Shown: in pieces, positions 5,612-29,115 of the stretch
How the letters are laid out: each line of letters opens with the position of its first letter
How positions within the stretch are numbered: the first letter of the stretch is position 1
Source: Flavobacteriaceae bacterium
Lineage (GTDB): Bacteria > Bacteroidota > Bacteroidia > Flavobacteriales > Flavobacteriaceae
Reading direction: 5' to 3'
DNA length: 32,000 nt
Assembly (NCBI GenBank): GCA_965224465.1
Contig: OZ245049.1
Location: 360,001-392,000, forward strand
Notes under the pieces: model-generated
What the model was told of the DNA's origin: nothing
The model's input: only the letters and a program-made list of their open reading frames with translations
Databases searched by the model: none
Position numbers and translations under genes: made by a program

Positions 5612-5614
5612 TTT

Positions 5615-7547: not shown

Positions 7548-7660
7548 TACGAACTAAAATCCAAAATCACCGATATAAATAGGTTGTTTTATGTGCTGGC
7601 ATTATTGAAAAACAGAAATTAATTCTATTTCTAAGCCGTCACTTGGAAATTTAATTGGTG
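7548..7660. mobile_element. MITE copy with internal deletion and degenerate left end
   Basis: Carries AAAATCCAAAATCACCGATATAAATAGGTTGTTTTATGTGCTGGC ... CCGTCACTTGGAAATTTAATTGGTG and lacks the central ~45 bp present in the full copies. Confidence 0.55.
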
Positions 7661-8011: not shown

Positions 8012-8158
8012 GAACAATGTGACTGTTATAAATAGGTTGTTTTACATGCTGGCGTTGTTAAAAAACAGAATGATAGCTGGGCTATCCATCCATTTACCAC
8101 CTAGCTAAAACAAAGAATAATTTCATTTCTAAACTGTCACTTGGAAATGTATTTGGTA
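8012..8158. mobile_element. MITE copy (left end degenerate)
   Basis: ATAAATAGGTTGTTTTACATGCTGGCGTTGTTAAAAAACAGAA ... CTGTCACTTGGAAATGTATTTGGTA. This explains the 3' half of the spurious ORF 7809-8108. Confidence 0.6.
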
Positions 8159-8207
8159 TACGCCCACACCAAAAAAACACTTGAAATTTGTATCTAAAAC
8201 CAATCCT

Positions 8208-9800: not shown

Positions 9801-9815
9801 ACCAATATCCTAAAA

Positions 9816-12104: not shown

Positions 12105-12116
12105 AAAACAACATCA

Positions 12117-13661: not shown

Positions 13662-13770
13662 CCGATATAAATAGGTTATTTTATGTGCTGGCGTTGTTAT
13701 AAATTCTAAGGATAGCTATGGGTATCCTTAGAATTTTTGCCTAATTAGAACAAAAAATAATTCCATTTTT
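13640..13770. mobile_element. MITE copy, right end truncated by the next copy
   Basis: The left TIR CACCAACTACAGTCCAAAATAACCGATATAAATAGG overlaps the sulfatase 3' end. An internal 12-bp hairpin is ATTCTAAGGATA...TATCCTTAGAAT. Confidence 0.65.
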
Positions 13771-13852
13771 AATTACAATCCAAAATGACAGCTATAAATA
13801 GGTTGTTTTATGTGCTGGCGTTGTTGAAAAAACAGAACGATTGTAAGCTAGG
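13771..13852. mobile_element. MITE left-half fragment
   Basis: AATTACAATCCAAAATGACAGCTATAAATAGGTTGTTTTATGTGCTGGCGTTGTTGAAAAAACAGAAC, after which homology is lost. Confidence 0.6.
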
Positions 13853-14140
13853 AAAACTCAAAACAGTCTATCTATTTAGCGGAAGAGCCCCCTCCTGCCT
13901 ATTGGTTACAACGAATAAAAGCAGGTACTAATAAGCAAAAAAAACGTAGTCACGTAATGGGAAATAGTGCCAACATACTACTGACCAATACTTAACCGGA
14001 TCTAAAAACGGTACAAACCAATTCCTACGAAAGAGATTGGGAGCAAATGACCTAAAAATAGGTGATATCTATTAAGGTATTTGTCGATAGCCTCTTAATT
14101 AAATCTCGCAATCCCCATAGTATCATCTTTTGAGCTGGTA

Positions 14141-14206
14141 AAGTCAACAGGATGTTCATGCTGGGCGTGGCGCACCGGATTGATGAACATTTAGTTATTG
14201 TGTGTA
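14141..14206 (-). other. attC-like imperfect palindrome (terminal site of the candidate cassette array)
   Basis: The plus strand reads GTCAAC-AGG-ATGTTCAT-G-CTGG-GCG-TGG-CGC-A-CCGG-ATTG-ATGAACAT-TTA-GTTATTGTGTGTA. It has 8-bp perfect inner arms, a small GC apical stem and a one-sided ATTG bulge. AAC/GTT boxes sit 3 nt outside the arms. The site overlaps the stop codon at 14191. Confidence 0.55.
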
Positions 14207-14922
14207 GCCTTTTCTGTTTTTACTCCACTAAATCCAGTTGCACAACCATAGAAATAAGAACTATAATTGAGTTTAAAACCTTCTTTTCTAAATATTTCCA
14301 TTGCTTTTTCTGCATTTTTGAATTTATCAGTATATTCCCAAAGCATTTTATATTCAATAGGGTTCCCTAAAAATACTTTCCCCAAAATTGGTATAATATT
14401 CTTTAAATAAAATCGGTAAAAAAACTTCAAAATCTTATATTTTGGTTCTGAAACTTCTATGAATGAAATTTCTCCATTTGATTTTAAAATTCTGTTAGTC
14501 TCATTTGCTAATATTTTTAATTGACTTTCATTAAATGTCTTTAGTCCAAAAGCACAAGTAACAAAATCATTATGATTTGATTGTAATTCATTATTCAAAA
14601 CATCTTGATTTAGAATAATTGCTTTACCGTTAAACGTATCATTATTTTTCGTTTCAGCATATTTTAACATTCCATCAGAAAAATCAAGTGCAGATATTTT
14701 TGCTTTTGGAAACCTTTTTTTTGTTGCTTTCCAAGTTTCTCCCATTCCTGTGAGTAAATCAATTATTTCAACTTCCTTTCCTGTTTTATTAAATGATTTT
14801 AAAAAAGTTTTTCTCCAACGTATTGAAAAGCCAAATGATGTTATATAATTCATTCTTTCATATGAACTACTCATACGGTTAAAAATCTTTTTCACATATT
14901 CTGGGCTGTAAATATTATTCAT
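14191..14922 (-). CDS. class I SAM-dependent methyltransferase (UbiE/COQ5-like)
   Basis: 243 aa. The N-terminal YERMNYITSFGFSIRWRK resembles the UbiE/MenG signature, and the SAM loop is DLLTGMGE. Confidence 0.78.
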   Translation of the reverse strand: MNNIYSPEYVKKIFNRMSSSYERMNYITSFGFSIRWRKTFLKSFNKTGKEVEIIDLLTGMGETWKATKKRFPKAKISALDFSDGMLKYAETKNNDTFNGKAIILNQDVLNNELQSNHNDFVTCAFGLKTFNESQLKILANETNRILKSNGEISFIEVSEPKYKILKFFYRFYLKNIIPILGKVFLGNPIEYKMLWEYTDKFKNAEKAMEIFRKEGFKLNYSSYFYGCATGFSGVKTEKATHNN

Positions 14923-15391
14923 TCAGTATAGTTTTCCATTTTTCAGTTTCAGCAAAATCTTTTATAGTCTCATTCCTAACGATTAATAATTTTTTCATAT
15001 ATTTTGTTAAAATTATATAATTAAAAAGTTTTCCGATAATTCCAAAAGGTGATTGAAATTCAAAAATATCTTTCATTATTACAATGTTGTTTTTAACTTC
15101 AAAATAGTGGTCGTGTTTTATTAGTTTAAAAATTCCTTTAGTTTGTTCATCTTTAAAATGAAAAGGTCTTTTGTATTGAGTGATTTTTGATGTTAGTTTT
15201 TGAGTAATTCCAAAATGAGTGGCTTTCCAAGTTACGAATTCATCTAATCCGATTAGTCTTGATATTTTTCCGTCAATTGCTTTTTCATTCGATTTGGCGA
15301 TTGAAATTTTGTGTAGATCAATACTTCTTGAAAGGTCAAAACATATTTCTATTTTAGAATTTATTTTGGTTTCAAGTTCGATTTCTGGCAT
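14915..15391 (-). CDS. SRPBCC (START/Bet v1-like) family protein
   Basis: 158 aa, with the length and pattern of Polyketide_cyc2-like ligand-binding proteins. It overlaps the downstream methyltransferase by 8 nt. Confidence 0.55.
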   Translation of the reverse strand: MPEIELETKINSKIEICFDLSRSIDLHKISIAKSNEKAIDGKISRLIGLDEFVTWKATHFGITQKLTSKITQYKRPFHFKDEQTKGIFKLIKHDHYFEVKNNIVIMKDIFEFQSPFGIIGKLFNYIILTKYMKKLLIVRNETIKDFAETEKWKTILNE

Positions 15392-15409
15392 TTAGCATTC
15401 AGTTTTTGG

Positions 15410-15497
15410 TTTACACACAACGCTTTAGCTAAGTGCAGTACGGTATTTAAAAAGGGAAATGACCTTCGATAAAGCACGAGCAAAGCTATTGTTTGTT
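15410..15497 (-). other. attC-like imperfect palindrome
   Basis: TTTACACACAAC-GCTTTAGC-TAAGTGC...GCACGA-GCAAAGC-TATTGTTTG. Both arms carry CAAC/CAAT, GCTTT, GCT and GTGC in mirror order. It is GC-enriched relative to its flanks and starts 19 nt upstream of the ATG at 15391. Confidence 0.5.
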
Positions 15498-15516
15498 TTT
15501 TTATTTTTCAATCTTT

Positions 15517-15544
15517 GAAAACCAAATCAATAGATTTGGTTTTC
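15517..15544 (-). terminator. strong hairpin GAAAACCAAATC-AATA-GATTTGGTTTTC
   Basis: 12-bp perfect stem, 162 nt downstream of the stop (15706) of the IS66-disrupted gene. Confidence 0.4.
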
Positions 15545-15705
15545 TGTAAATATAAAAGAACCTTTGGAAATAAACAAGGAACCGTATTGACGTTTAGGTT
15601 GGGCACTGCGTCCGTTTCGTTTAACAGCTCATAATTGCTCTGTTTCCGATTCCGCAAAGTTTCTCCTTTGTTTTGATGTAAAAACTATTACGTTTCTATT
15701 TGAAC

Positions 15706-15957
15706 TTATTTATTCCACAATTTAAAAACACCAGATAAAGCAGTAAAAAAGCCTACGGATGGAAGTATTACTTGTGTTAAATTGATTTTTCCTGTACTGA
15801 TACCCATTGAAAGATATATCAAACCGATTATAAAAACAATTATTCCAATTATTAGAATTTTCTTACCCGTATCCCTTTCCTTACCTATATAGTTTTTATA
15901 TTCATTTTCTGTTAATCCATAAAGTCTTTTTAATTCTTTTTTAATAGCGTTTTCATC
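15706..15957 (-). pseudogene. C-terminal half of a small membrane-protein gene split by IS66
   Basis: In frame with 18478-18701 once the IS and one TSD copy are removed. It encodes ...NAIKKELKRLYGLTENEYKNYIGKERDTGKKILIIGIIVFIIGLIYLSMGISTGKINLTQVILPSVGFFTALSGVFKLWNK with stop TAA at 15708-15706. Confidence 0.8.
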
Positions 15958-16015
15958 GTATCCGTCCGACCATCCCCATATTTTTTAGCAGAAAAATAGC
16001 TCCTATTTTTGACGC

Positions 16016-16324
16016 ATGAGAAAAAACGAAGAAAAACGAGCCTATATGACAGCTGTTGTTTCCGATTGGAAGTTGAGTGATTTAACCTTGGAAGATTATT
16101 GTAAAAGTCATAAAATTACACTTTGTAAATTTAGGTACTGGAATAAGAAATTGACCTCCAAAAATGCCAGTGGATTTTCAAAGGTTGAACTTATTGATGC
16201 TCCTATTGAAAACAGCAGAAATTCTATTTTAGATAGTTTTAAAATCGAGTATCCAACAGGTGTAAATTTGGTCATTAACAAAGAGATTACACTTATCGAT
16301 TTACAAAATTTAATTCATTTGTAA
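16016..16324 (+). CDS. tnpA: IS66 accessory protein TnpA (orf1)
   Basis: 102 aa, first gene of the IS66 trio. The stop abuts the tnpB start (16324/16326). Confidence 0.8.
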   Translation: MRKNEEKRAYMTAVVSDWKLSDLTLEDYCKSHKITLCKFRYWNKKLTSKNASGFSKVELIDAPIENSRNSILDSFKIEYPTGVNLVINKEITLIDLQNLIHL

Positions 16325-16325
16325 T

Positions 16326-16667
16326 ATGCTAAATATTTCAAGTGAACTTGATTTTCATCTGTACCTAGAACCCACAGATATGCGTAAAGGATTTAATGGT
16401 TTGTCAGGTGTTATCCGTAATAATTTAGAAGAGGATCCTAGTAATGGAGCTGTTTTTATCTTCATAAATAAACCTCGAAACAAAATAAAACTATTGCATT
16501 GGCAAGCAGGTGGATTTGTACTGTATTATAAACGATTGGAACGAGGTACTTTTGAACTTCCGGTGTATGATAATCTGAAAGGAAGTATACAAATGAAATA
16601 CAGCCAAATGGTGATGCTTCTTGATGGACTGTCTATAAAAAACATCCAACAAAGGAAACGTTATTAA
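16326..16667 (+). CDS. tnpB: IS66 Orf2 / TnpB
   Basis: 113 aa. EPTDMRKGFNGLSGVI...KLLHWQAGGFVLYYKRLERGTF is the conserved IS66 Orf2 signature. Confidence 0.92.
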   Translation: MLNISSELDFHLYLEPTDMRKGFNGLSGVIRNNLEEDPSNGAVFIFINKPRNKIKLLHWQAGGFVLYYKRLERGTFELPVYDNLKGSIQMKYSQMVMLLDGLSIKNIQQRKRY

Positions 16668-16735
16668 TGTCTTTTTACAGGTAAAAAACCTAATAAAACC
16701 AGGCTGTTCATGTATATTTTTCGTATATTTAATGT

Positions 16736-18421
16736 ATGGAAAAAGACTTAGAACAGCTATCAAAAAAAGCACTTATAGCCCTATTACAGGAGGCTAATTC
16801 TAAGTCAGATTTACTTATCAAAAAGACAAATTCTCTTAGCTCAAAGAATGAGTTACTTAATACAAAGACAAGTTCTCTTAGCGCAAAGAATGAGTTACTT
16901 ACTATAAAGACAAAAGACGTTACTTTACAAAAGGCTATCCTAGAAGCTCAATATAAAGAATTAGAGACAAAATACGGATATGGACAATTTCAATTAGAGC
17001 AATTACGTCGTATGATTTTTGGGACAAAACGTGAGCGTTTTATAATGGCTAATAACCCTTTTCAAATGCAACTCCCTTTCGAAGTTTTAAAAGAGATGCC
17101 CCAGGAAGAAGAAGCTCCTGTAAACATTACATATCAACGTAAAAAGGCTAAAAAAAGAACGATTGGAAGTTTAAATCTCCCCAGTCATTTACCTGTTGAA
17201 ATTATTAATTTAGAGCCTAAAGAGACTATAGAGAACCGAATAAAAATAGGTGAAGAAATTACAGATAAATTAGAACTTGTACCCACAAAGCTATACATAA
17301 AACGATATGTCAGACCAAAATACGCCTTAAAAAAGAAAGTACAAGACACATTGATTGACAATGGAAACCCTTTAGGTATTAAGACCGTTATTATGGCTGA
17401 TTTACCAAGTTTTGCTATTGAAAAATCTGTAGCATCAAACAGCCTGCTAGCACAGCTATTGATTGATAAATTCTTAGATCACTTACCGTATTATCGACAG
17501 ATAGAACGTTTTAAACGAGAAGGAATCTCTATAAGTTCATCTACAATAAATGGATGGCAAAACAGCTTAGGACACTTACTTAAGCCGCTGTATCAGGCTA
17601 TGAAAAACACGGTGCTGTCACAAGGATATGTACAGGCCGATGAATCAACTATTCCGGTGCTAGACAAACAGAAAAAAGGAAAAACTCATACTGGATATCA
17701 TTGGGTGTACTATTCACCCATACAAAAAATGGTATTGTTTGATTATCGTCACTCTAGATCTAAACATGGACCTAGAGAAATGCTTAAAAACTTTAAAGGG
17801 TATTTACAAACAGATGGCTACGCTGTATATGATGAATTTGCACTTAAAAAAGATGTCACTTTAGTAGGGTGTATGGCACATGCACGTCGTTATTTTGAGA
17901 AAGCACTAGACTATGACAAAGTAAAAGCGAGTCATGCGATGGTACTCATTCAACAATTATATGCCATTGAACGACATTGTAAAAACCAGGAATTTACTCC
18001 TGAGCAACGGCATGCTTATCGCCTAGATAAAGCACAACCAATAATGGATACATTTATAAAATGGTTGATCCATAATACCCAAGGAAGCTTACCTAAAAGT
18101 TCCTTAGGAAAAGCAATCACTTATACATTAAAACGATGGGACTACTTAAAAGCCTACCTGTATGACGGTACTTTAGAACTAGATAATAACCTGGTAGAAG
18201 GATCTATCAGAACATTAGCTATTGGACGTAAAAATTATTTATTTGCAGGTAGCCATGATGCTGCAAAAAATGCTGCCATGTTCTACTCCTTTTTTGGGAC
18301 TTGTAAAAAACACCAAGTAAACCCCTATAAATGGATGAAAAAAGTACTGGATATAATCCCTGATTACAATGCTCGAAAGCTAAATGAGCTATTTCCACAA
18401 AATTTAAACCTCGATCAATAA
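16736..18421 (+). CDS. tnpC: IS66 family DDE transposase TnpC
   Basis: 561 aa. It has an N-terminal coiled coil, LPYYRQ, ADESTIPVLD and GCMAHARRYF, and a C-terminal NNLVEGSIR..GRKNYLFAGS. Confidence 0.93.
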   Translation: MEKDLEQLSKKALIALLQEANSKSDLLIKKTNSLSSKNELLNTKTSSLSAKNELLTIKTKDVTLQKAILEAQYKELETKYGYGQFQLEQLRRMIFGTKRERFIMANNPFQMQLPFEVLKEMPQEEEAPVNITYQRKKAKKRTIGSLNLPSHLPVEIINLEPKETIENRIKIGEEITDKLELVPTKLYIKRYVRPKYALKKKVQDTLIDNGNPLGIKTVIMADLPSFAIEKSVASNSLLAQLLIDKFLDHLPYYRQIERFKREGISISSSTINGWQNSLGHLLKPLYQAMKNTVLSQGYVQADESTIPVLDKQKKGKTHTGYHWVYYSPIQKMVLFDYRHSRSKHGPREMLKNFKGYLQTDGYAVYDEFALKKDVTLVGCMAHARRYFEKALDYDKVKASHAMVLIQQLYAIERHCKNQEFTPEQRHAYRLDKAQPIMDTFIKWLIHNTQGSLPKSSLGKAITYTLKRWDYLKAYLYDGTLELDNNLVEGSIRTLAIGRKNYLFAGSHDAAKNAAMFYSFFGTCKKHQVNPYKWMKKVLDIIPDYNARKLNELFPQNLNLDQ

Positions 18422-18477
18422 AATCGAGGATTTTTTATGTATTTTTAATTCCTATACGTACTTCGTCGGACGGATAC

Positions 18478-18701
18478 TTTTCATCAAGCATTTTATCTTT
18501 TAGCTGTAATATCATTTTTTCAATCTTCTTATGGGATATAGTATTGGATTCTATCTCTTTTTTTTCTTCTTCTACAATTTTATTTAGGTTTATACCTTGG
18601 CTCATTAAGTCATATTGAATACTTTCGATAGATTCTCCCATCTTAAGTCGTTCAATCACTATGGAATTAATTTCCTCGCGTTGATTTTTTTGTTCTTCCA
18701 T
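18478..18701 (-). pseudogene. N-terminal half of the gene split by IS66
   Basis: Codons 1-74 (MEEQKNQREE...KDKMLDE). The track ORF 18435-18701 reads through into the IS end for 14 codons. Confidence 0.8.
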
Positions 18702-18736
18702 ATTTTAAATACTTAAATTTTTCAATTGCAATTTTT

Positions 18737-18813
18737 GTACACAAATTAAGTTTCAATTTGGTTTTGTTTCTTCAAAGTGTTTTTTCACTCAGACTTTTTT
18801 ATCTTAGTTGTGC
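18737..18813 (-). other. weaker attC-like palindrome
   Basis: GTACACAAATTAAG ... CTTAGTTGTGCCC are mirror outer boxes, with an inner AGTG-TTTTTT-CACT hairpin. The left box has AAT rather than AAC. Confidence 0.3.
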
Positions 18814-18885
18814 CCAAAGTTTTGTGTATGGTTTGTTGTGTGTTTAAATGTACAAATTTTCAGTTAAGTACAAATTTCATAAAAA

Positions 18886-19556
18886 TCACTTATCTTTGGT
18901 TTAGCAAGAAGTAGCAATAAACTATACACTTTGCTACACTAAACACCTACGGTGTAGCTTTCGTTGCGAACCATTAACTTCTGTGTTATTAATTTAAAAT
19001 TTAAATAACATGAAAAACACAGAAGAAAACAGCCGTATTGCAACAGAAGTAAAGGTAGTAAAAATAGAAGTAGCAAACTTGGTTCGTATTTATGAAAATA
19101 GGTTGATAGTTGCTAGTAAATCAGATCAAACTATTCGGAATTATGTGCGTGGGCTCGTAAAACTATATGAATTTCACGATAAAGACCCCAAGGAATTGAA
19201 TTGGCGTAGCATCAAGCTGTATGTTGCAGAATTGCGATACTACTATCAGGAAATACTAGAAAATGTATCTTTAGCACAGAAAATTCCCTATTCCAAAGAA
19301 AAACCAATTTCACCCTTAACTATTAGGCGGGAGGAGTTAAATTGTTGTTTGAAAGCTGTATTAATTATAAGTACAAGGTGATATTTCGCTTGTTGTATTC
19401 CTGTGGTATTCGAAGATCTGAACTAGTGCATTTAAAGATACATGATATTGAAACAAAGGATGGGAAAATGTGGATTAGAATTAACAAAGGGAAAGGGTCA
19501 AAAGACCGGTATGTTTATATTAACCCAAAAGTATACCACTATTTTAATCGCTAGGT
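18886..19556 (+). mobile_element. 5' portion of a tyrosine-recombinase/IS91-type composite element (truncated)
   Basis: A ~125-bp leader is shared with 25211-25344, including the hairpin CTACAC..GTGTAG and the 10-bp IR CTTCTGTGTT/AACACAGAAG around the ATG. The degraded recombinase gene follows. Confidence 0.6.
19010..19554 (+). pseudogene. tyrosine recombinase (phage-integrase family), frameshifted and 3'-truncated
   Basis: Two overlapping ORFs (19010-19381 and 19342-19554) together read SDQTIRNYVRGL...YVAELRYYYQEILEN...INYKYKVIFRLLYSCGIRRSELVHLKIHDIETKDGKMWIRINKGKGSKDRY. The catalytic C-terminal half (H-x-x-R, Y) is missing. Confidence 0.75.
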
Positions 19557-19571
19557 GTTTGTGTGCCGTTT
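19557..19571 (-). other. R''-like half-site (GTTTGTGTGCC) abutting the stop at 19572, cut off by the recombinase element
   Basis: Its 9 nt TTGTGTGCC (19559-19567) are the exact complement of GGCACACAA (20359-20367) at the other end of the same ORF block. Confidence 0.45.
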
Positions 19572-20339
19572 TTAATTTGGCCCATCAATTATTGGTTCAG
19601 GATTTAAATTAAATTTATTAGTTTTTTTATCATAAGTAACTATCATGTATCCACCCACTCGTCCAATATTATTCCAAATAATTATTTTTCTTGTTTTTGT
19701 ATTTACTACTTCTACATTGTCGTATATGATAGTCTTGACATTTCCTGTTTGACTTTCAATTTCAGAAAAGTCAATTGTTTGAAAAATTTTATTGTCTCTC
19801 TTCTGAATTATTTTTAAGGAATTCATTTGTGCTCTTCTGTCTTCTTCTAATTTTGAATAGTTCCCTACAAAATAAAAGTCAGATAAGGAATTTGTTTGTA
19901 GAATTTCTATGTTTGAATATTCATTTTTGTCTGTTGTGTCTATTAGTTGAGAAACAAAATCTAAGTGTAAGATTAATCTCTTATTTGTAGATAAATTTTT
20001 CCAGATTCCTGATATTTTACTTTTCGAAAAGTCAAACTCAAAAATTGCAGAATATTTGTTGTTAGAGATTTCATATAACAATGCTTTATTATTTTTAAAA
20101 TTAATTTTCCCCTCAAGTCTAATTGGAGTATTGTATTTATCATATTTGTAAACTCCAATAACATTAAAATCTCTTTTTTCCTGTTCTCCAAAATATCCTT
20201 GTCTAACTTGAATAGATAGAGTAATTGGATATTTATCTATTGTTCCTTTGAAATTATAACATTCATACCAACCCGCGTAAATTTTTGTAAAGCTAAAGCA
20301 GATAAAAAAAAGTAAAATTACGGATGTTTTCTTTGTCAT
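19572..20339 (-). CDS. hypothetical secreted protein
   Basis: 255 aa with an N-terminal signal peptide (MTKKTSVILLFFICFSFTKIYA). I recognise no domain. Confidence 0.7.
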   Translation of the reverse strand: MTKKTSVILLFFICFSFTKIYAGWYECYNFKGTIDKYPITLSIQVRQGYFGEQEKRDFNVIGVYKYDKYNTPIRLEGKINFKNNKALLYEISNNKYSAIFEFDFSKSKISGIWKNLSTNKRLILHLDFVSQLIDTTDKNEYSNIEILQTNSLSDFYFVGNYSKLEEDRRAQMNSLKIIQKRDNKIFQTIDFSEIESQTGNVKTIIYDNVEVVNTKTRKIIIWNNIGRVGGYMIVTYDKKTNKFNLNPEPIIDGPN

Positions 20340-20358
20340 AATGATTGCTGTTTTTTAT

Positions 20359-20440
20359 GGCACACAACGCTTGCGCTATGCCAAGTGGGCTTGTGTTGCG
20401 CCTGCGGCAAGCACATTTGGTATAACGACTGTTGTGCATA
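20359..20440 (-). other. attC-like imperfect palindrome (best example)
   Basis: GGCACACAAC-GCTTG-CGCTATGCCAAGTGGGCTTG-TGTTGCGCCTGCGG-CAAGCACATTTGGTATAACG-ACT-GTTGTGCATA. Outer boxes are CACAAC/GTTGTG. The ~19-bp inner arms have mismatches and bulges. GC content is well above the AT-rich surroundings, and the site fills the gap between two minus-strand ORF blocks. Confidence 0.6.
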
Positions 20441-20453
20441 GTTGTTTTTAAAA

Positions 20454-20570
20454 TGGTGTGAAGCAGGGGACTCGAACCCCTTTAACCCTCAGTCCTAATA
20501 AAGTTTAATTTTCGTCAGTTACTAATATTCCAAAGCAAAGGCTCCATTCTTCACACGAGGGTCGCTTCAC
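20454..20570 (-). ncRNA. tRNA-like element (canonical T-arm + acceptor 3' strand + CCA; no cloverleaf)
   Basis: The minus strand reads ...AGGGG-TTCGAGT-CCCCT-GCTTCAC-A-CCA (20481-20454). The complementary 5' strand GTGAAGC is at 20570-20564. A second closing helix is CCCTC (20561-20557) / GAGGG (20490-20486). The 66-nt AT-rich interior cannot form D or anticodon arms. Confidence 0.35.
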
Positions 20571-20714
20571 GAATAATCATTTTCAATTTTTCCATAATTA
20601 CAGATTTTATCAGTTCTACAAACACTATTGCTAATGCGAAGAATAGAAATTGACTTAGGTCAAATAGATAACTGGTTACTAATTCTACTTTGTTACATAG
20701 GCTCTTAAATATCT

Positions 20715-21548
20715 TTAGAACGGTAAATCTTCCCAATCTACCGTTTCTGTTTCTTCTTTTTTATTTTCTTGTTCTATTGTCTTTTCAATGGTTTCAATAA
20801 ATTTTATCGAGTTAGTAACATTATTAAATATTAAAACACTTTCAGAGTAATTCAAAATTTGATTGTCGTGAGCAAAACTTCTATTGTTTCTAATGTCATT
20901 AAATGCTTCTATGACGTGGATAGAATATTTTAAAATTCTTTCAGTCATTTGAGATTCGATTTTCTCATTTGCCACAATGAACTTTACATATTTACCAAAT
21001 ATTGCATTTAGTGATTCTGCTTTTTTAATTTCAATCTTATGACTTTCACATAATTGACGGATAAATTTCATTACATATGTATGCAATCTATCTAAAGCAA
21101 CTTCAGGTTCATTTTTATCTATACTTTCTCGGATAGATTTGGCAAGTAAACTAAAGTCTCTATCATCAGAAACTTCCTTAATTACACCAATTTCTTCAAT
21201 AATTGTATCCTCTAATAATTTTCCTGCTATTTTTTGACACTCGTCAAATAGATTTTGCTCTGGTTGAGTTATTTCTCCATAAGACATAAGTTTTTTGTCC
21301 TTCCAATAATCGAGCATTTCAGAGGTTAATTTCCCTACTGTATAGTTTTTTTCTTTATGCCAAATTGCTCTTAGTCTGTTGGCTTTAGAATCTCCAAAAT
21401 CAGAGTAATTATCTGAATAGAATTCTAAATTCAATGTTTCAAAGACAAAATTACTTAAAGTCCTATTTGAAAAATCAAGTACATAACCGCCTTCCATTTC
21501 AAAGAACTTTTCTAATTTCAATTTTTCACTTCTATTTAGGTCTGCCAT
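20715..21548 (-). CDS. AbiJ-like abortive-infection protein with C-terminal HEPN (Abi_C) domain
   Basis: I prefer ATG 21548 (MADLNRSEK...) to the track start at 21575, which lies inside the attC-like box. The N-terminal GYVLDFSNRTLSNFV...GDSKANRLRAIW resembles AbiJ N-terminal domains. The C-terminal IRNNRSFAHDN fits the HEPN Rx4-6H motif. Confidence 0.72.
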   Translation of the reverse strand: MADLNRSEKLKLEKFFEMEGGYVLDFSNRTLSNFVFETLNLEFYSDNYSDFGDSKANRLRAIWHKEKNYTVGKLTSEMLDYWKDKKLMSYGEITQPEQNLFDECQKIAGKLLEDTIIEEIGVIKEVSDDRDFSLLAKSIRESIDKNEPEVALDRLHTYVMKFIRQLCESHKIEIKKAESLNAIFGKYVKFIVANEKIESQMTERILKYSIHVIEAFNDIRNNRSFAHDNQILNYSESVLIFNNVTNSIKFIETIEKTIEQENKKEETETVDWEDLPF

Positions 21549-21563
21549 TCGGTTTTTCTCAAT

Positions 21564-21650
21564 TACGCACAACACCCGTATATCATCAATAAACTTCCAA
21601 AACTTGACGTTATTTCCGTTATCTCTATAATAGTTTCGGGTTGTGTGTTG
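21564..21650 (-). other. attC-like site (outer boxes good, interior poorly paired)
   Basis: TACGCACAACACCCG ... CGGGTTGTGTG is an 11-bp inverted repeat with 2 mismatches, separated by ~60 AT-rich nt. Confidence 0.35.
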
Positions 21651-21767
21651 TTTTTTTGTTAAAAGTATTCAAATTTTTTAAATTTTCAAGCGGTCCAACG
21701 ATTTTTTTATTGTTTATTTCGATGGTCTTGGTGTATATCTCTGTGGTTTTTGGAGAAGCAGGCTTAA

Positions 21768-21926
21768 CACCAATTACAATCCAAAATGACAGATATAAAT
21801 AGTTTATTTTACGTTCTAGTGTTGTTGAAAAATAGAACTATAACTAAGGCTATCCTTAGATTTTTCGCCTAGCTAAAACAAAAAATAATTTCATTTCTAA
21901 ACTGTCACTTGGAAATATATTTGGTG
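21768..21926. mobile_element. MITE copy (full length, reference copy)
   Basis: The TIRs are CACCAATTACAATCCAAAATGACAG / CTGTCACTTGGAAATATATTTGGTG, and there is an internal hairpin CTAAGG-CTAT-CCTTAG. Confidence 0.75.
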
Positions 21927-22180
21927 TAAGAGGACTTTTTAGATTCAATAAGAAGTTGCTTTATAACCTATTGTTTATGTGTGTAAAAGAGACGCTGTTT
22001 GAGTTTTCGTTGGACAAACGACAAAAGATGGAAGCCAAGCCCGGTTTGATAACCATTCTCCATACATGGAATCAAAAAATGCAGTATCACCCACATATTC
22101 ATTGTATTATTCCCAGCGGAGGTATCAACGAAAAAGGGGAATGGAAAACGTGTAAGGGGCCCGTAATTATGTTGGTTTAG
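21927..22180 (+). pseudogene. IS91-family (Y2 HUH) transposase internal fragment
   Basis: ...LITILHTWNQKMQYHPHIHCIIPSGGINEKGEWK matches the conserved HTW..L..HPH.HC..P.GG core. It starts exactly at the MITE end and loses homology after ~75 codons. Confidence 0.7.
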
Positions 22181-22374
22181 TTCTATGAATGCCAACATAT
22201 TTACAGGAGCCATAGTGTTTCTTATAGACTACGTTTTTGGTCTAACATAATTAAAACAAGCATATTAAAAGATGTATTTTTCCTTTTTAAGTCCATTTGA
22301 TTTTTTACAGAGTTGTAGTGTATTTCCGAACGGTATTCTAAAATATGGTTTTTTTACCCCTTGCTATTTTTGCC

Positions 22375-23499
22375 TTATTTTGATTTGTAAAAAGCTTCTA
22401 AAGTCGTTAAAAAAGAAGCTCCTAAAGCTTCTGAACGCTCTGCTGACCATCCTTTTGTTGCATCAGGAAGGTTGTTATTATCTTTAAAAGGCATTTCTAA
22501 AGTAAAAGAAAGTGTTTTGAAAAGTTCTCCAATCTGTTTAGAACAAATCGCTAAGTTTGCCTTTTGTGGAAGGTTATCTTCATATTTATATACATCTTGA
22601 AATTCAGGAGTTACCGATATCCACTTATTTTTAAACCGAGTTTCTTCGGCTAAAATTTCAGGAGTAATACTTGGAATCCCTTGTAAGCTGGTTACAAAAT
22701 TATAAGGTATCGCCTCGTCACCATGTACATCTAATAAAAAATCTAAACCTGTTTCTTGCATTTTTTGTTTGCAATAAAAAACCTCTGGTTCGGTAGCCTT
22801 GTCAGGATTTTCCCAAACTCGGTTGTAATTTATCCCCAAAGTGTTTACCCGTATGTTCCCCGAAATACTTCCATCAATATTCATGTTCGGAATCAAGTAA
22901 AAACAACAGGTTTCTAATAAGCTATCCATCGTAGTATCTTTTGATATGAAACGATCTACAATTCCTTTCATAAACCATTCTGCCATACTTTCCCCTGGAT
23001 GCTGACGTGCAATTATCCAGATGTTTTTTTTATCCTCGCTCGGTTTTCCAAATTGTAAAAGTTCAATCGGTTTGTTATTTATGGTTTGCCCTAAAACAGT
23101 GGTTGTACATAATTTACTTTGACTCGATTTTTCTATTAAATCAAGATGTTGCTGATAGGTAAAAGGCGTGAAATAAGCAAAACTCACTTGTGTTTGCGTA
23201 GGTGTGATACTGAAATAAAGTTTGCCATTTTTATATTCGGTATTTTGTAAACGAAACCAATTTTTAGCGTCATAAGAAGCATTGGTATTGTAATTTTCCC
23301 AACCATCAGCAAAGGCACTTTCACTTGTGTTATTAATACAGAAATTATAGGTTTCTCCTATAATAGCATTCGTCATTTTAAAATTAAACCATTGAAAATA
23401 ATGAGAATTCGTGTCTTTACGGATGTTTAATTGTATCGTGTTTTCTTGCTGTGATACTACAATAATATTACCAGCATCTATATTTGTTGTTATTTGCAT
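22375..23499 (-). CDS. M14-family zinc carboxypeptidase (cytosolic-carboxypeptidase-like, with N-terminal beta-sandwich domain)
   Basis: 374 aa. Zn-binding is IARQHPGE (HxxE) with a later DVHGDE. There is no signal peptide. Confidence 0.8.
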   Translation of the reverse strand: MQITTNIDAGNIIVVSQQENTIQLNIRKDTNSHYFQWFNFKMTNAIIGETYNFCINNTSESAFADGWENYNTNASYDAKNWFRLQNTEYKNGKLYFSITPTQTQVSFAYFTPFTYQQHLDLIEKSSQSKLCTTTVLGQTINNKPIELLQFGKPSEDKKNIWIIARQHPGESMAEWFMKGIVDRFISKDTTMDSLLETCCFYLIPNMNIDGSISGNIRVNTLGINYNRVWENPDKATEPEVFYCKQKMQETGLDFLLDVHGDEAIPYNFVTSLQGIPSITPEILAEETRFKNKWISVTPEFQDVYKYEDNLPQKANLAICSKQIGELFKTLSFTLEMPFKDNNNLPDATKGWSAERSEALGASFLTTLEAFYKSK

Positions 23500-23621
23500 A
23501 AAGTTTTATTAGTTTAATTTTTATTTTTTTATAGATAAAATGAAACCACGTTTACATTCAGGAAGGTAAAACCCTAACAATTTATTGTGGTTATTGCATA
23601 CGGAAACGTTTAAGCGTAAGC

Positions 23622-25001
23622 TCAAAACTGGTCTGATATCATCCAATTATCTAAAGCAATTTTTTTATTTTTGGACTGCAGCCAGATTTTACTTTTTGTC
23701 AAATCCTCTATATTTACTTTAATATCAAAATACACCTCTTCTTTTGGTGTTTCTATAAAAGTAGTATATTGGTTAAATAATAACTTCTTATCAAACATAA
23801 TAGCTACCCAACGTCTTTCGTCTTTGTTATTTAATATTTTAATTCTAATTAAAACCGGTAGTGGTTTTGTAATGATTTCTTTTAAAAAATCAGCACTTCT
23901 ACTATATTGATTCAAATAAAAATCTATGATCTTAATATCTTTAAGTTCGTTAATTTCATTTGGTTTTTGGTTAATTGCAATTCCAAAAGGATATAGGCTT
24001 CTAAAACTTAAGATTTCTTCAGGACTTAATTTAGTAACCGTTCCTTTTTCAAGAATTTTAAAATCCCGATTTAAATTTTCAATACTAGTACTATCTAGTG
24101 GCGCAATTTGAGAATGGGTTTTAAAAATAGAATCCAGAGTTTGCCCTTCTACAGTATTGAAAGCTACATCAAAATAAGGGGTTAAGTGCGTATAATCAGT
24201 ATATTCTTTCTTTAATAAGTCTACATGTCCATTGGGTAATATATGAATAAGCATATCACTAATAATGAGTTGTTTTTCATAATTTTCAGCTACTTTTAAT
24301 TTCTTCTGGTCAATGGGAAAGAGGTCTTTATAAAACTTATTTTCTAAAACGGAATACCATGACAGTTCAAAAGTATCAAAACCAATAGGAATTAACGTGT
24401 CTGTGGAATTCGTATAATACCGCTGACTATACATATATTCGTACGGTTCGGTGAAACCTTCTATTTCAGAAACTTTTCTATAATTTTCGTGAAACCTAGC
24501 GCAAAAAGAAGCCGTTTTTTTTCTTTTAGAATCTATAAATTTTATACAGTCTATTAGTATCGGAAAATCTTTGTCATGTGCTATTATAATATTACTACTA
24601 TAATGTTTTCTTTGTGTTTGATATAAGTAATAAGCGCTACTAATAGATAAATACATCGGATAGCCTAACAATATAATCCCCCATATTAATAATTTAATTT
24701 TATAGCCTTCTACACTATGAGCAACTTGGCTAAAGCTAAAAGAGCCGTAAGCTATAAAGGCATAAAAAGCAGTAATAGTGAGAAACTTCAGAATCATATC
24801 CGTATTTAGACGTATAGCAATATTGCTATTGGAAAAGGACTTCCCTAGCGCATTTGCGTAAACAAACAAATAACAAGTAATAAGCGTTAGAATTATAGCG
24901 GAAGTGGTTACTCCTATTGTACCACCAAAATAAGCAGCAGGAAAAAGAAACAACAAACCAATGCCAATCATAATTAGTAACGTAGCAAGGAAATCAGACA
25001 T
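23622..25001 (-). CDS. hypothetical multi-pass membrane protein with large soluble C-terminal domain
   Basis: 459 aa. About 4 hydrophobic helices lie in the first 125 aa, followed by ~330 aa with no motif I recognise. Confidence 0.7.
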   Translation of the reverse strand: MSDFLATLLIMIGIGLLFLFPAAYFGGTIGVTTSAIILTLITCYLFVYANALGKSFSNSNIAIRLNTDMILKFLTITAFYAFIAYGSFSFSQVAHSVEGYKIKLLIWGIILLGYPMYLSISSAYYLYQTQRKHYSSNIIIAHDKDFPILIDCIKFIDSKRKKTASFCARFHENYRKVSEIEGFTEPYEYMYSQRYYTNSTDTLIPIGFDTFELSWYSVLENKFYKDLFPIDQKKLKVAENYEKQLIISDMLIHILPNGHVDLLKKEYTDYTHLTPYFDVAFNTVEGQTLDSIFKTHSQIAPLDSTSIENLNRDFKILEKGTVTKLSPEEILSFRSLYPFGIAINQKPNEINELKDIKIIDFYLNQYSRSADFLKEIITKPLPVLIRIKILNNKDERRWVAIMFDKKLLFNQYTTFIETPKEEVYFDIKVNIEDLTKSKIWLQSKNKKIALDNWMISDQF

Positions 25002-25210
25002 AATGGGAAGATTGATTTTTTTCGGATATATTTTAGCGCCTTTAACATATTTACTTAATGGTAGCCAATGGTCTGTATATGAAACGTAGCATATAAAAAT
25101 ACGATAAATTTTAGGTTTATCACAGCACCAAATTTAACAATTTTCGTTTTAATTTTTCACATTTAAATTGATGAATTGTAAATTTTGTAGAATTGTTAAT
25201 AGATACAGAC

Positions 25211-25344
25211 TTTTGGGTTTAGAACTTAGCCTTTATTATTTATATTGTTGCACTAAACACCTCTGGTGTAGCTTACGTTGCGACCCCTTAACTTCTGTGT
25301 TATTCATTAAAAATTTAATAGCATGAAAAACACAGAAGAAAACA
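25211..25344 (+). repeat. second copy of the recombinase-element leader plus first ~8 codons
   Basis: Aligns with 18886-19032 at roughly 80% identity by eye. Homology ends at ...CACAGAAGAAAACA, directly next to the attC-like site. Confidence 0.7.
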
Positions 25345-25394
25345 TCTGGATGTTCATGCTGGGCGCTACGGACCGGATGAACACTTAGTTATTA
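25345..25394 (-). other. attC-like palindrome, homologue of 14141-14206
   Basis: TCTGG-ATGTTCAT-G-CTGG-GCGCTACGG-A-CCGG-ATGAACAC-TTA-GTTATTA. It overlaps the stop codon at 25392, and its distal box is replaced by the recombinase-element fragment. Confidence 0.5.
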
Positions 25395-25751
25395 TATGGC
25401 ATTTTCAATCCATTCAATTGCCTTTGTAAGTGACTCCTCTTGTTCGCATTTTACATCTGGTATTATGGAACCTTTAATTATATTTTTATCCGAGTCACAT
25501 ATAAATGTGTCACTAAAAAATAATACTGTTCCATCTGAATTGATTCCAATTATTTTAAGTCCAGTTGTCATTCCCTGAGATTCCGAACCAAATATTTTAG
25601 TGTTTCCTTGAGATTTTAAAACTATTGTAACAAATTCTCCCAGACTTGCTGTCTTAGAGTTTATCAAGACAGCTGTTTTTTTATTTTTATTTTTCAATGT
25701 ACTATCAAAATCAATGCTTTGAATCGAACCTGAATTTCCTTTAAAATAATG
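25392..25751 (-). pseudogene. C-terminal fragment of a gene interrupted by IS30 (weak S41 peptidase-like C-terminus)
   Basis: The frame stays open from the IS30 junction (HYFKGNSGSIQSIDFDSTLKNKNKKTAVLINSKTASLGEF...). VLINxxTASxGE resembles the Ser-containing strand of S41 peptidases, but other S41 motifs are absent. Confidence 0.4.
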
Positions 25752-26875
25752 CTGAATTCAAGTCACAAACGCAACTTTTAGTTAAATAATAATTGTTCCA
25801 TTACAAATATAGGGTTTTGATATTTATGTCTCTTCCTAGGTCTGTTATTTAATTTTGTTTCTACCTCTTTGATTCTTTGATCTGTTAGGTTTGTAAAGTC
25901 ACTTCCTTTGGCAAAATATTGTCTAATCAAACCATTTAAATTTTCGTTAGATCCTCTTTCCCAAGAGTGATATGGATGCGCAAAAAAGTAATCAATACAT
26001 AAATTTTCTGCAACCTGCTCATGGCCTGCAAATTCTTTTCCATTATCAGCTGTTATAGTATGTAGATAAGGCTTCCAGTCTTCTAATATTTCATTGATAG
26101 CTTTAGTGACAACAACTGCTTCTTTAGAGCTTACTTTTTTCATTTTAAGCATTCCAGAAGCTCTATCATTTACGGTAAGTATGGCTTGATTATGGTTTTT
26201 ACCTATGATTAAATCGACCTCTAAATCTCCAAATCGATTTCTTTGTTCAACAACTTCAGGGCGTTGTTCTATACTAATACGATTCTTTATAACCCCTCTA
26301 GAATCCTTTGATGAGCCACGTTTTCTATATCTCCTTCCCTGTCTGCGAAGGTGTGTATGTAAATCACCATCATTCCTCTTGTCTTCCCTAATATGCTGAT
26401 ATATACGCTCAATAGACACCGTTTCTTTACCTTGTTTTTTTAGGACACCAACTACTTGCTCAGGACTATAATCGTCTCGCAATAACAACTCTATTGCTTG
26501 TTGAATATCTTCTGTAAAGCGTTTTCTTTTAGGCTTTTCTTTATGACGTTTAGCATACTTTTTTTGGGCTAATTCATGCTTGTAAACTCCATTTCTTTTG
26601 TCTGAATTACGCTTAATCTCTTTGCTAATAACAGACTTGTCTTTTCCTATAGCAGCTGCTATCTCAACCTGTTTATAACCTTGTTTTAACATGCAACAAA
26701 TTGTGTATCTTTGCGCTTGGGTGATGTGTTTCATACAACTTCTTTTTTCGAGATTTGAGACCGTAAGATACATATCCATCAAGACAAGAAAGGTAGGTTT
26801 TCCTACTTTTCTGTTTTGAAAATATAACCATCATAGAATCAAATCGAAAAGTTGCGTTTATTAGTTGAATTTAAG
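25752..26875 (-). mobile_element. IS30-family insertion sequence (~1.12 kb)
   Basis: Imperfect ~28-bp terminal IRs CTGAATTCAAGTCACAAACGCAACTTTT (25752-) / AAAAGTTGCGTTTATTAGTTGAATTTAAG (-26875), with a single transposase ORF. Confidence 0.85.
25778..26734 (-). CDS. IS30 family transposase
   Basis: I prefer the start at MKHITQAQRY (26734). The N-terminal HTH is QGYKQVEIAAAIGKDKSVISKEIKRN, and the DDE core is DLIIG...TADNGKEF...SWERGSNEN. Confidence 0.92.
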   Translation of the reverse strand: MKHITQAQRYTICCMLKQGYKQVEIAAAIGKDKSVISKEIKRNSDKRNGVYKHELAQKKYAKRHKEKPKRKRFTEDIQQAIELLLRDDYSPEQVVGVLKKQGKETVSIERIYQHIREDKRNDGDLHTHLRRQGRRYRKRGSSKDSRGVIKNRISIEQRPEVVEQRNRFGDLEVDLIIGKNHNQAILTVNDRASGMLKMKKVSSKEAVVVTKAINEILEDWKPYLHTITADNGKEFAGHEQVAENLCIDYFFAHPYHSWERGSNENLNGLIRQYFAKGSDFTNLTDQRIKEVETKLNNRPRKRHKYQNPIFVMEQLLFN

Positions 26876-27039
26876 AAGTTATTATTAATGCTTGTCCAAT
26901 TTAACTCATCTTTTTTGATGGAATTATAATGTATTGACTTAAAAATTTTATCAAAGAATATTTCTTCTTTAGTCTTTTCTTTTTTAGCACAAGAATATAG
27001 TAACACCACAAGGATTAAGAATAATATTGGGGTTTTCAT
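26876..27039 (-). pseudogene. N-terminal fragment (lipoprotein signal) of the gene interrupted by IS30
   Basis: MKTPILFLILVVLLYSCAKKEK...DELNWTSINNN. The track ORF then reads into the IS30 end. Confidence 0.45.
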
Positions 27040-27082
27040 ATTTATTTTATTGTAATGATATAAAACGCATGTTGGCAAATCG

Positions 27083-27622
27083 TTATATATTCACTTGCTC
27101 TTTTATTCTTCCAATTAGGTATTCAAAATCGGATTTCAAATGCGTTCGATTTTTCTCGATTAGAGTCAGTAATTCAATTTTCGAATTGTCTTCTAATAAA
27201 ATGAACAATTTACCATTAAAGGTGTCTTTGTAATTATTTATTTCGTAGGTCAAATCTTGAATATCTTGTGTTTCGTATTTTTTCGACTCATTTTTAGATA
27301 ATAACTCTATTGAATTTGGAGAAAATACTTTTTTATACTTGCTGTTCTTTGATAATTTATAAGCATTCCCTATCATTACAAAACCACTTCCACCGAGAAG
27401 TAAAACAATAATTTTAAGTACCTGACTCATAGGTATATCCAATCTATTAATCAAACCAGCAAAGAAAAAAGATAACAGAATAATAAGTGCCCCAACTATA
27501 TACTTAATCATTACTTTTTTAGTTTTTCCAATTGTTAGCGTTTGAGAATTCTCGTCATAATCGAAAATTAAATGATGTCTTTTAAATTTTAAACCTAACG
27601 TGTACAATACTTTTTTATCCAT
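27083..27622 (-). CDS. hypothetical membrane protein (two central TM helices)
   Basis: 179 aa. It is bracketed by 11-nt inverted boxes TGTTGGCAAAT (27070-27080) and GTTTGCCAACA (27636-27646). Confidence 0.65.
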   Translation of the reverse strand: MDKKVLYTLGLKFKRHHLIFDYDENSQTLTIGKTKKVMIKYIVGALIILLSFFFAGLINRLDIPMSQVLKIIVLLLGGSGFVMIGNAYKLSKNSKYKKVFSPNSIELLSKNESKKYETQDIQDLTYEINNYKDTFNGKLFILLEDNSKIELLTLIEKNRTHLKSDFEYLIGRIKEQVNI

Positions 27623-27635
27623 ATTTATATTTAAT

Positions 27636-27686
27636 GTTTGCCAACACTCATATAACCATAATAAGAACTAAAACATAATGGTATAT
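27636..27686 (-). other. partial attC-like site (R'-like box + one pair of arms)
   Basis: GTTTGCCAACA-CTC-ATATAACCATAAT-12 nt-ATAATGGTATAT. I found no convincing distal box. Confidence 0.3.
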
Positions 27687-28142
27687 CTATTTAGTCTACA
27701 GTATTGGGGGTATTATTAATTTACATTTCTAAACAGCGTCATATAATTTTGTTTAGCCTTGTAAATATACACTAAATAAGGATATACGAATGCTTTAATC
27801 ATTCAATTTATTGATAGCGAGGCTCGCTCGTATTTAGCGTGTAATAAGGGTGATATATACCTTGTGTAACTAGAGGTAAGCAATAAACCTTGGATAGATA
27901 ACAGTTTTAATAGTCTTAAAAATTATTGGTTTTAATAAGCGTGGTAGATACTGACTTTTCCTAAGAGTGATTTTAAAGATCAGAGCATCGGAATTTTATA
28001 AAACAACACTATATATTGAATCATAAAGTTCGTTTGTTAGAACCACGTATACCTTACTTAAAATTAAAAACATCCAACTTTACGTGAATCCATAAAAATA
28101 TAGCATGTAAAATTCAATCCGATAATAAAAATCTTAAACCAA

Positions 28143-28229
28143 ATAATCGTTGCTGGCTAATAAATCAAACCATACGAAACTATGTGCGTGGACTAGTCAA
28201 ATTGTATGAGTTTCACAACAAAGCCCCAA
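28143..28229 (+). pseudogene. fragment of the same tyrosine recombinase gene as 19010-19554
   Basis: ATCGTTGCTGGCTAATAAATCAAACCATACGAAACTATGTGCGTGGACTAGTCAAATTGTATGAGTTTCACAACAAAGCCCC aligns with 19105-19190. Confidence 0.6.
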
Positions 28230-28890: not shown

Positions 28891-28979
28891 ATTTTGTCAG
28901 TATCCCATTTTTAAGACCAAAATCTACAGAGGGGTCAACATCACCGGAATGAGGGGTCAACATCATCGGAATATCTACC

Positions 28980-29036
28980 TAGCTAGAACAAAAAATAATT
29001 CTATTTCTAAACCGTCACTTGAAAATGTATTTGGTA
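28980..29036. mobile_element. MITE right-half fragment
   Basis: TAGCTAGAACAAAAAATAATTCTATTTCTAAACCGTCACTTGAAAATGTATTTGGTA, truncated on the left by the IS21 remnant. Confidence 0.6.
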
Positions 29037-29115
29037 TTAATACAGCTATCAACAGCAATCAGTAGAGAAAATATTTACTACAAGTTAACACAGAATCTTA
29101 GATATTAACTGGACT

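Follow-up and report, generated by a model that had tools for sequence, protein, structure and literature searches.

The window analyzed here is a 32,000-nucleotide (nt) stretch from the genome of a Flavobacteriaceae bacterium (contig OZ245049.1, positions 360,001–392,000), and its part between 14.1 and 27.7 kb probably forms a chromosomal array of integron-like mobile gene cassettes, carried by a marine Flavobacteriia-type genome and later broken by IS66, IS30-like, IS256-family, IS21 and IS91-type insertions. The open reading frames (ORFs) of the cassettes are co-oriented on the − strand, one or two to a cassette, short and mutually unrelated (an Abi_C protein, a methyltransferase and peptidases are among them, and many have no Pfam match), and neighboring cassettes are separated in the window by imperfect palindromes of ~48–110 nt. 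The array is recognized by a rule of complementarity in which the short box at one end of a cassette is the inverted counterpart of the box at the other end of the same cassette, rather than of the box across the palindrome. An IS91-type element that carries a tyrosine recombinase sits exactly at the cassette junctions and has the same end architecture as the ORF blocks.

A sequence-only reading of this DNA had proposed that each ORF block is bracketed by its own matched boxes, and the four pairs on which it relied were recovered in full: TTGTGTGTA (14198–14206) with TACACACAA (15412–15420) and TTGTGTGCC (19559–19567) with GGCACACAA (20359–20367), both 9/9, GTTGTGCATA (20431–20440) with TACGCACAAC (21564–21573), 9/10, and TGTTGGCAAAT (27070–27080) with GTTTGCCAACA (27636–27646), 10/11. 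The block that it had set aside as a misfit (15706–18701, boxes 15488–15498 and 18737–18746) is indeed unmatched, at 4/11 in the re-alignment where ~6/10 had been given. Compared as 11-mers, each own-block pair agrees at 9/11 positions, while the two boxes of one palindrome agree at 7/11 (palindrome C), 6/11 (B) and 8/11 (D). When pairings were permuted, the true pairing was the single best of 24 (four blocks) or of 120 (five blocks), and with only four or five blocks in the window the p value from the window alone can never fall below ~0.01–0.04. When the test is extended by five blocks from other loci, 4 of 362,880 permutations score as high as the true pairing, a figure that is biased since three of the five added blocks came from match searching.

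The rule can be written as a short grammar. On the + strand, the 11-mer RTTG-N4-TAG forms the left box of a block and TTA-N4'-CAAC the right box; seen along the ORF strand, GTTG-N4-TAA... lies upstream of the ORF and ...CTA-N4'-CAAY downstream, and the two are reverse complements over 11–13 nt bar a fixed A/C mismatch at position 11. The leftover mismatches are non-random: they occupy position 1, which is A or G, and position 11, where the left box has G and the complement of the right box has A. The TAA versus TAG asymmetry is seen in the window cassettes MT, X and Y (Table 1). An unbiased search for a strict motif (RTTG-N4-TAG ... TTA-N4'-CAAC, cores required to be exact complements, at most 8 kb apart, ~380 kb searched) returned eight matches among 67 candidate pairs on the strand of the IS91-type element, where 0.26 were expected, and none among 35 on the other strand. 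Looser searches were noisy or unspecific: an 11-mer bracket search gave 87 matches against 60 in a control geometry, and a scan for AAC-hairpin-GTT gave 130 against 134 in a reversed-sequence control.

The same rule operates outside of the window. The first unit to the right of the IS91-type element is a − strand ORF block in seven of the 11 loci with enough flank (L002, L005, L013, L014, L015, L033 and the window); the boxes of these blocks are perfect at positions 2–10, with mismatches only at positions 1 and 11, and their ORFs are mutually unrelated. Past the first unit, an automatic chain walker followed AT-rich matches due to chance. A further array lies in the metagenomic Joint Genome Institute (JGI) contig Ga0209023_10001629 (loci L084, L089 and L090). 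There, no fewer than 27 co-oriented ORFs extend across at least 23 kb; a 173-nt repeat occurs between them in 20 copies, every one with ..AAC at one edge and GTT.. at the other, and repeats reach ~195 nt. Compared as 13-mers in a likewise unbiased test, the boxes in L089 agree at 210 of 247 positions within their own cassettes versus 136 of 260 between the two boxes of the same repeat, and none of 200,000 permutations reaches this result. Fourteen of 19 cassettes match at 12/13, and position 11 is mismatched in all 16 cassettes that match at 10/13 or better (A/G in 15, A/C in one), the asymmetry also seen in MT, X and Y. A single L089 cassette has GTA...TAC instead of GTT...AAC, and thus position 3 covaries with the cassette.

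Cassette X provides the case in which a block and its box pair are found together in a different context, an observation that the sequence-only reading had named as a check. Protein X has many homologues, one of which (69% identical) is encoded in the L089 array with GTTGTGTGCCAT upstream and ACGGCACACAAC at the cassette end, as in the window, while its neighbors, the repeat and the sequence outside of the boxes are all different. This is the sole such case found, and no other cassette protein of the window recurs among the fetched loci. The remaining X homologues (L087, L088 and L091–L094) lie in ordinary gene clusters without boxes. In four of these loci (L087, L091, L092 and L094) the X family belongs to a conserved Flavobacterium run of six uncharacterised genes, free of boxes and palindromes, and this usual box-free setting suggests that the cassette arose by recruitment of an ordinary gene of the chromosome.

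The IS91-type element carries the features of its family, namely a Y2 HUH transposase with Zn_Tnp_IS91, distinct ends, a right-end hairpin and a tetranucleotide at both junctions. In L002, a recombinase 74% identical to the window fragments is directly followed by Zn_Tnp_IS91 and Y2_Tnp, and the transposase matches NF033538 at 258 and 129.6 bits (cut-off 125); the same gene order is kept in nearly all of the Bacteroidota genome loci L004–L036. The left end reads GTTG[C/A]ACnAAA and the right end consists of a complementary 11-mer, a 54–55-nt hairpin and CTAAkT, followed by the RTTG of the neighbor. Three copies of the element in one metagenome-assembled genome are identical from GTTG to ...CTAATT and diverge immediately outside, which places the ends of the unit at the RTTG triplet. 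When the right end is joined to the left end, the junction forms an attC-like hairpin: its foot measures 12 bp, and it contains a 1/3-nt internal loop and two bulges of a single base. This hairpin covaries: among 11 elements, compensatory changes occur in 16 of 33 pairs, and 86.5% of cells pair versus 33–43% with slid partners, a value that none of 500 shuffles reaches. Under a simple search, the IS91-type elements from outside of the Bacteroidota (L037–L083) returned no GTT...AAC end pair. In L010 (9816–9889), a 54-nt hairpin preceded by ..TATAAC stands directly upstream of GTTGAACCAAA, the left end of an IS91-type element, and may represent a tandem arrangement or the remnant of a second copy.

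The recombinase of this element is a relative of the integron integrase, IntI. It matches IntI4 (2a3v, E 6.6e-32) and XerA about equally well, and aligns to the integron-integrase profile TIGR02249 and to IntI4 in two stretches with the IntI insertion absent; at 165.7 bits against a TIGR02249 cut-off of 265, the recombinase (P0002) is not an IntI by score. ISShvi3 and ISSod25 are further IS91 members with an upstream tyrosine-recombinase gene. Recombinases borne by IS91 elements have been placed as the nearest relatives of IntI, lacking its insertion (Smyshlyaev et al., 10.1101/542381), with which the scores above agree, and ISShvi3, an IS91-like element, has been reported beside an attC site in a true Shewanella integron (PMC9229058). 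Two other interpretations of the window were rejected. The fragments at 19010–19554 were considered as a decayed intI divergent from the cassettes, which is ruled out by full-length relatives of 290–304 amino acids (aa) and by the IS91 transposase next to them in nearly every Bacteroidota locus. Cassettes X and Y were considered as lying inside one IS91 element; this was replaced by an internally deleted remnant at 18933–19556, the final ~21 nt of which are the right end of the element (...TTTTAATCGCTAGGT) abutting the left box of cassette X, and a separate transposase fragment at 21729–22180.

In the proposed mechanism, a cassette would leave as a circle in which its own two boxes pair at the foot of the folded palindrome to make an attC-like hairpin. 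A tyrosine recombinase of the IntI family would then swap strands at the conserved RTT/AAY triplet, with this hairpin and the matching triplet of a resident site as partners, and insertion at this triplet would leave the two boxes of any palindrome derived from different cassettes. From the geometry we infer circular intermediates, folding as a single strand and an exchange at or next to G/TT. The sequence-only reading had claimed excision and integration as circles with crossover at G/TT, and both claims stand in part. The boxes bracket mobile units and not palindromes, as expected, and the pair travels with the ORF, but rolling-circle movement by an HUH transposase gives the same footprint. 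Likewise, the stretch of identity shared between copies begins and ends at the RTT/AAY triplet, but the exact position of the crossover within it is inferential.

Which neighbor would carry each palindrome is a separate matter, as the own-block box match is symmetric and says nothing of ownership. The IS91-type element owns a palindrome 3' of its own genes, on the strand opposite to the ORF cassettes. The box register of the MT and S41 units and a shared segment of the D type fit a palindrome upstream of the ORF, whereas the spacer and bulge asymmetry of palindrome B fits the canonical integron orientation instead. If the palindrome on the ORF-start side belongs to the cassette, a circle of X would join B to the left box as ...GACTG/TT(T)GTGTGCC; if the palindrome on the ORF-stop side does, a circle of Y would carry B joined as ...GCAAGCG/TTGTGCGTAA (− strand).

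Several observations weigh against assignment to the integrons. No intI was found among the window ORFs (nearly all of those of at least 60 aa were scanned) or in the 3.4 kb past the window end, and the 23 kb of L089 and L090 hold no integrase, the 2.7 kb gained by searching for the array head being still made up of cassettes. An Rfam scan of the window gave no match, and no matching right box was found for unit U2. The attC criterion used here asks for at least two imperfect palindromes of 57–141 nt with R'' (RYYYAAC) and R' (GTTRRRY) boxes, an unpaired spacer and extrahelical bases. With their boxes, palindromes B, C and D are 82–88 nt long; they contain internal loops and bulges in inconsistent orientation; AAC/GTT is kept in B and D, while C has ATT, and their cores read CACAAC/GTTGTG. 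The boxes thus differ from the canonical 7-nt GTTRRRY/RYYYAAC form, reading GTTGTGY/RCACAAC and extending to 11–13 nt with a fixed mismatch, and some sites begin with ATT. The folding energies of the window palindromes are near those of shuffled sequence (z −0.2 to −2.5). If the ORF cassettes share the polarity of the IS91-type element, each ORF would face away from its palindrome, opposite to the arrangement in an integron cassette. Integrons are also rare in the Bacteroidetes, where the record consists of In0 elements and a single complete integron, that of Salinibacter (PMC9024848). As an integrase was sought in the searched DNA and not found, and the fragments at 19010–19554 belong to an IS91-family recombinase below the IntI cut-off and without the insertion, membership in the integron family is not established.

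There are two candidates for the enzyme: an integron integrase encoded at some other place in the 5.24-Mb genome, or the embedded IS91-family element's IntI-like recombinase. Integrons have been reported in the Bacteroidota, though rarely (PMC9024848, PMC8618304), and together with the IS91-like element beside attC in Shewanella this makes a classical IntI elsewhere in the genome plausible, and an IS91-borne recombinase likewise. We regard the latter as a tentative proposal: the IS91-borne recombinase would be the cassette recombinase, and the Bacteroidota would have a form of gene capture without classical IntI or fixed platform, with the recombinase riding on a cassette-shaped rolling-circle transposon, the palindrome upstream of the ORF and the 11–13-nt box stem with its fixed mismatch as the recognition feature. 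The array fits best among integron-type cassette systems, as a variant of them, with the IS91-borne recombinase as its enzyme a substantial minority possibility.

The foremost rival explanation, which is unlikely, dispenses with a tyrosine recombinase. The ORF blocks would be non-autonomous units of the IS91 type, mobilized in trans by the Y2 HUH transposase via a circle of single-stranded DNA (rolling-circle or peel-and-paste), with RTTG as the cleavage and target tetranucleotide, the palindrome as an oriIS-like end and the complementary box as a guide that presents the cleavage site; a new unit would enter 5' of the RTTG of a resident unit, giving head-to-tail arrays. The IS91-type element has exactly such a layout, its transposase scores above the NF033538 cut-off, and the matched blocks are all co-oriented with the element. 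The junctions also match known IS91 biology, in which the terIS cleavage tetranucleotide stands beside a palindrome, oriIS palindromes are followed by a GTTC/CTTG target, a single-stranded circle is the insertion intermediate and no target duplication arises (PMC13181058). However, the block palindromes A/E, B, C, D and the long type have no sequence in common with the hairpin of the element or with one another. HUH transposases read specific end sequences, while IntI reads structure, and the unrelated palindromes therefore argue against a sequence-specific HUH enzyme. The blocks are also without the conserved left subterminal palindrome of the element (ACACC..GGTGT), and L089 is a 23-kb array of homogeneous repeats with no IS91 gene in view. 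The base before TTG follows the type of palindrome on its left (A after three of three A/E sites and four of four L013/L019-type hairpins, G after most others), a pattern that points weakly to a cut after position 1 (G/TT) rather than before the tetranucleotide.

It is far less probable that the blocks are immobile, with palindromes that are terminators or repetitive extragenic palindromic (REP)-like or regulatory elements, boxes that are alike through a shared consensus, and an IS91-type element that merely prefers GTTG targets. The folding energies and the loose scans would agree with this, and the strong box consensus (GTTGTGYGTAG / TTACRCACAAC) makes part of each match automatic. The variable 4-nt cores, however, match exactly within blocks and not across palindromes, both in the strict search and in L089, and X keeps its box pair in a different array. 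Terminators would not predict an upstream box that complements the downstream box of the same ORF, and no T-run follows the hairpins on the ORF strand when the sequence is read by eye. Least credible is the view that the blocks are modules of the Xer/dif type, comparable to pdif modules on Acinetobacter plasmids, where genes are flanked by inversely oriented XerC/XerD sites with matching inner arms; matched inverted arms, the hallmark of such modules, also bracket the blocks here and the recombinase family is Xer-like, but no 11-6-11 (28-bp) site was read by eye at the junctions, the boxes are 48–173 nt apart across an imperfect palindrome of variable sequence, and the units are all co-oriented, not alternating.

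Compared to known systems, the array resembles integron cassettes and clusters of attC sites with no integron-integrase (CALIN) in having short co-oriented ORFs between imperfect palindromes bounded by AAC...GTT, in a cassette start that complements its own inverse core and not the partner box of the same attC (here over 11–13 nt), in the presence of the same cassette in different arrays (cassette X only) and in the invasion of arrays by IS elements and group II introns. It differs in the box sequences and their fixed position-11 mismatch, the ATT starts, the lack of an intI in the searched DNA, the length of the L089 repeats, a host phylum with very few reported integrons (PMC9024848) and, possibly, a reversed ownership of the palindrome relative to the ORF. 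With its at least 27 cassettes, 20 near-identical repeats and proteins mostly of unknown function, L089 is reminiscent of sedentary chromosomal integrons such as the Vibrio cholerae repeat (VCR) arrays of Vibrio, although its repeat is longer and no integrase was seen within 23 kb; the heterogeneous palindromes of the window are more like the attC sites of mobile integrons. The embedded element shares with IS91/ISCR elements its Y2 HUH transposase (NF033538), distinct ends, right subterminal hairpin, junction tetranucleotide and lack of target duplication. Unlike those elements, its tetranucleotide is RTTG, its left end and right subterminal box form a covarying 11–12-bp stem with an attC-like hairpin, and it sits precisely at cassette junctions beside neighbors of the same architecture. 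IS1111-attC elements and group IIC-attC introns are likewise mobile elements at a fixed position and in a fixed orientation within a recombination site, whereas here the transposase family is another and the ends of the element itself mimic a cassette. Under rolling-circle movement the blocks would resemble mobile insertion cassettes (MICs), in which IS ends flank passenger genes that are mobilized in trans, but the block palindromes are not copies of IS ends.

Integrons are the main gene-capture system of the Proteobacteria and are barely documented in the Bacteroidota, a dominant phylum of oceans, soils and guts. The arrays described here show cassette-type gene shuffling in this phylum, with at least 27 cassettes in one array, and their grammar, a 13-nt box pair with one invariant mismatch, is checkable, may be missed by current attC models and would allow for a simple finder of further arrays. 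The exact and repeated tie to an IS91-family element with the closest known relative of IntI makes both the role of the IS91 tyrosine recombinases and the origin of integron single-strand recombination testable. Should the IS91-borne recombinase be the cassette enzyme, the system could be a living relative of the integron ancestor, linking single-strand rolling-circle elements to single-strand attC recombination.

Table 1. Features of the window from the start of the array onward, with coordinates in nt from the first base of the window
Feature	Position	Strand	Description
Site A	14139–14196	+	Box TAAAGTCAAC at 14139–14148, then 48-nt stretch with hairpin ATGTTCAT..ATGAACAT, end TTAGTT; homologous to site E and to L002 6590–6618
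Cassette MT	14197–15421	−	Left box ATTGTGTGTAG (14197–14207), right box TTACACACAAC (15411–15421), complementary at positions 2–10; ORFs 14191–14922 (UbiE-type methyltransferase) and 14915–15391
Palindrome C	15422–15487		66 nt, between CAAC of MT and ATTG of the next unit
Unit U2	15488–18823	−	Left box ATTGTTTGTTT; ORF split by IS66 into C-terminal (~15706–15985) and N-terminal (18435–18701) pieces
IS66	16016–18421		Splits U2 ORF
Long imperfect palindrome	18824–18932		~110 nt, GTGTATGGTTTGTTG...CAATAAACTATACAC-TTT
IS91-family remnant	18933–19556	+	Left end GCTACACTAAAC (mutated GTTGCAC); recombinase fragments 19010–19381 and 19342–19554
Tyrosine-recombinase fragments	19010–19554; 25323; ~28136–28229		21-nt stub at 25323
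Cassette X	19557–20368	−	Left box (G)TTTGTGTGCC, ORF 19572–20339, right box TGGCACACAAC (20358–20368)
Palindrome B	20369–20430		62 nt between CAAC and GTTG; strongest hairpin in the window
Cassette Y	20431–21573	−	Left box GTTGTGCATAG, Abi_C ORF 20715–21548, right box TTACGCACAAC (21563–21573)
Palindrome D	21574–21639		66 nt, then next left box GTTGTGTGTTG (21640–21650); left half homologous to L002 13867–13911
IS91 transposase gene fragment	21729–22180	+	Y2_Tnp fragment 21956–22180; MITE-like repeat inside (21766–21927)
Second IS91-type left end	25197–25343	+	GTTGCACTAAAC at 25247; recombinase ATG at 25323, cut off 21 nt into the ORF
Site E	25344–25390	+	Hairpin homologous to A, end CTTAGTT
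S41-peptidase unit	25391–27656	−	Left box ATTATATGGCA, right box ACTCATATAAC (27646–27656), match 7/11 with 8 contiguous bases; ORF fragments 25392–25697 and 26839–27078
IS30-like transposase	25778–26782		Splits S41-peptidase ORF
Cassette Z	27071–27645	−	Nested in S41-peptidase unit; boxes GTTGGCAAATC and TGTTTGCCAAC (9/11); ORF 27083–27622; no palindrome of its own
IS256/Mutator transposase	30387–31619
IstB fragment (IS21)	In variable part

The first part of the window (1–13661) is ordinary chromosome of ~35% G+C, with RecG, RsmB, endonuclease I, a TetR regulator, two GH20 hexosaminidases and a sulfatase, and from ~13.7 kb on almost every ORF lies on the − strand amid dense transposon debris (Table 1). 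The contig of a sister strain (L001) is 100% identical to the window over 19308–25750 and lacks the IS30-like insertion (window 25751–~26835); it has instead a group II intron reverse transcriptase that adjoins the IS91-type remnant. The long type of palindrome is also found to the left of the IS91-type element in L002 and L015.

Read canonically, with AATAAC as R'', sites A and E show a 3-nt register shift against the other box of their cassettes, and this reading was discarded; with the boundary set at TTAGTT/ATT the shift is gone. The TTAGTTATT junction beside the A/E-type hairpin ends three unrelated ORFs, those of the methyltransferase, the S41 peptidase and an ApbA protein (window 14191–14199 and 25385–25394; L002 6613–6621). 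The stop codon of the methyltransferase ORF falls in the TTAGTT just outside of its cassette box, and that of the S41 ORF just inside of its own box. Downstream of the Abi_C ORF, cassette Y contains a look-alike of a tRNA 3' half (GGGGTTCGAGTCCCCTGCTTCACACCA, ~20454–20500, − strand), which may be the remnant of an attachment site; ARAGORN called no tRNA in the window, this stretch included.

A repeat of ~140 nt that is like a miniature inverted-repeat transposable element (MITE) occurs in both the core and the variable parts of the window (5333–5482, 7549–7664, 8020–8159, 13638–13772, 13771–13846, 21766–21927 and 28977–29040) and in L002 (11167–11621), with one copy inside the IS91 transposase gene in L002 and in the window fragment alike. 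A perfect 20-nt inverted repeat (TTTTAAAATAGTTCGATTTT / AAAATCGAACTATTTTAAAA, window 30308–30367) stands between a 160-aa ORF and the IS256-family transposase gene. Past the window end (>32000), positions 1–3700 of L003 carry tandem paralogous lipoprotein genes with short conserved intergenic segments, one copy of which is broken by a DDE_5 insertion sequence.

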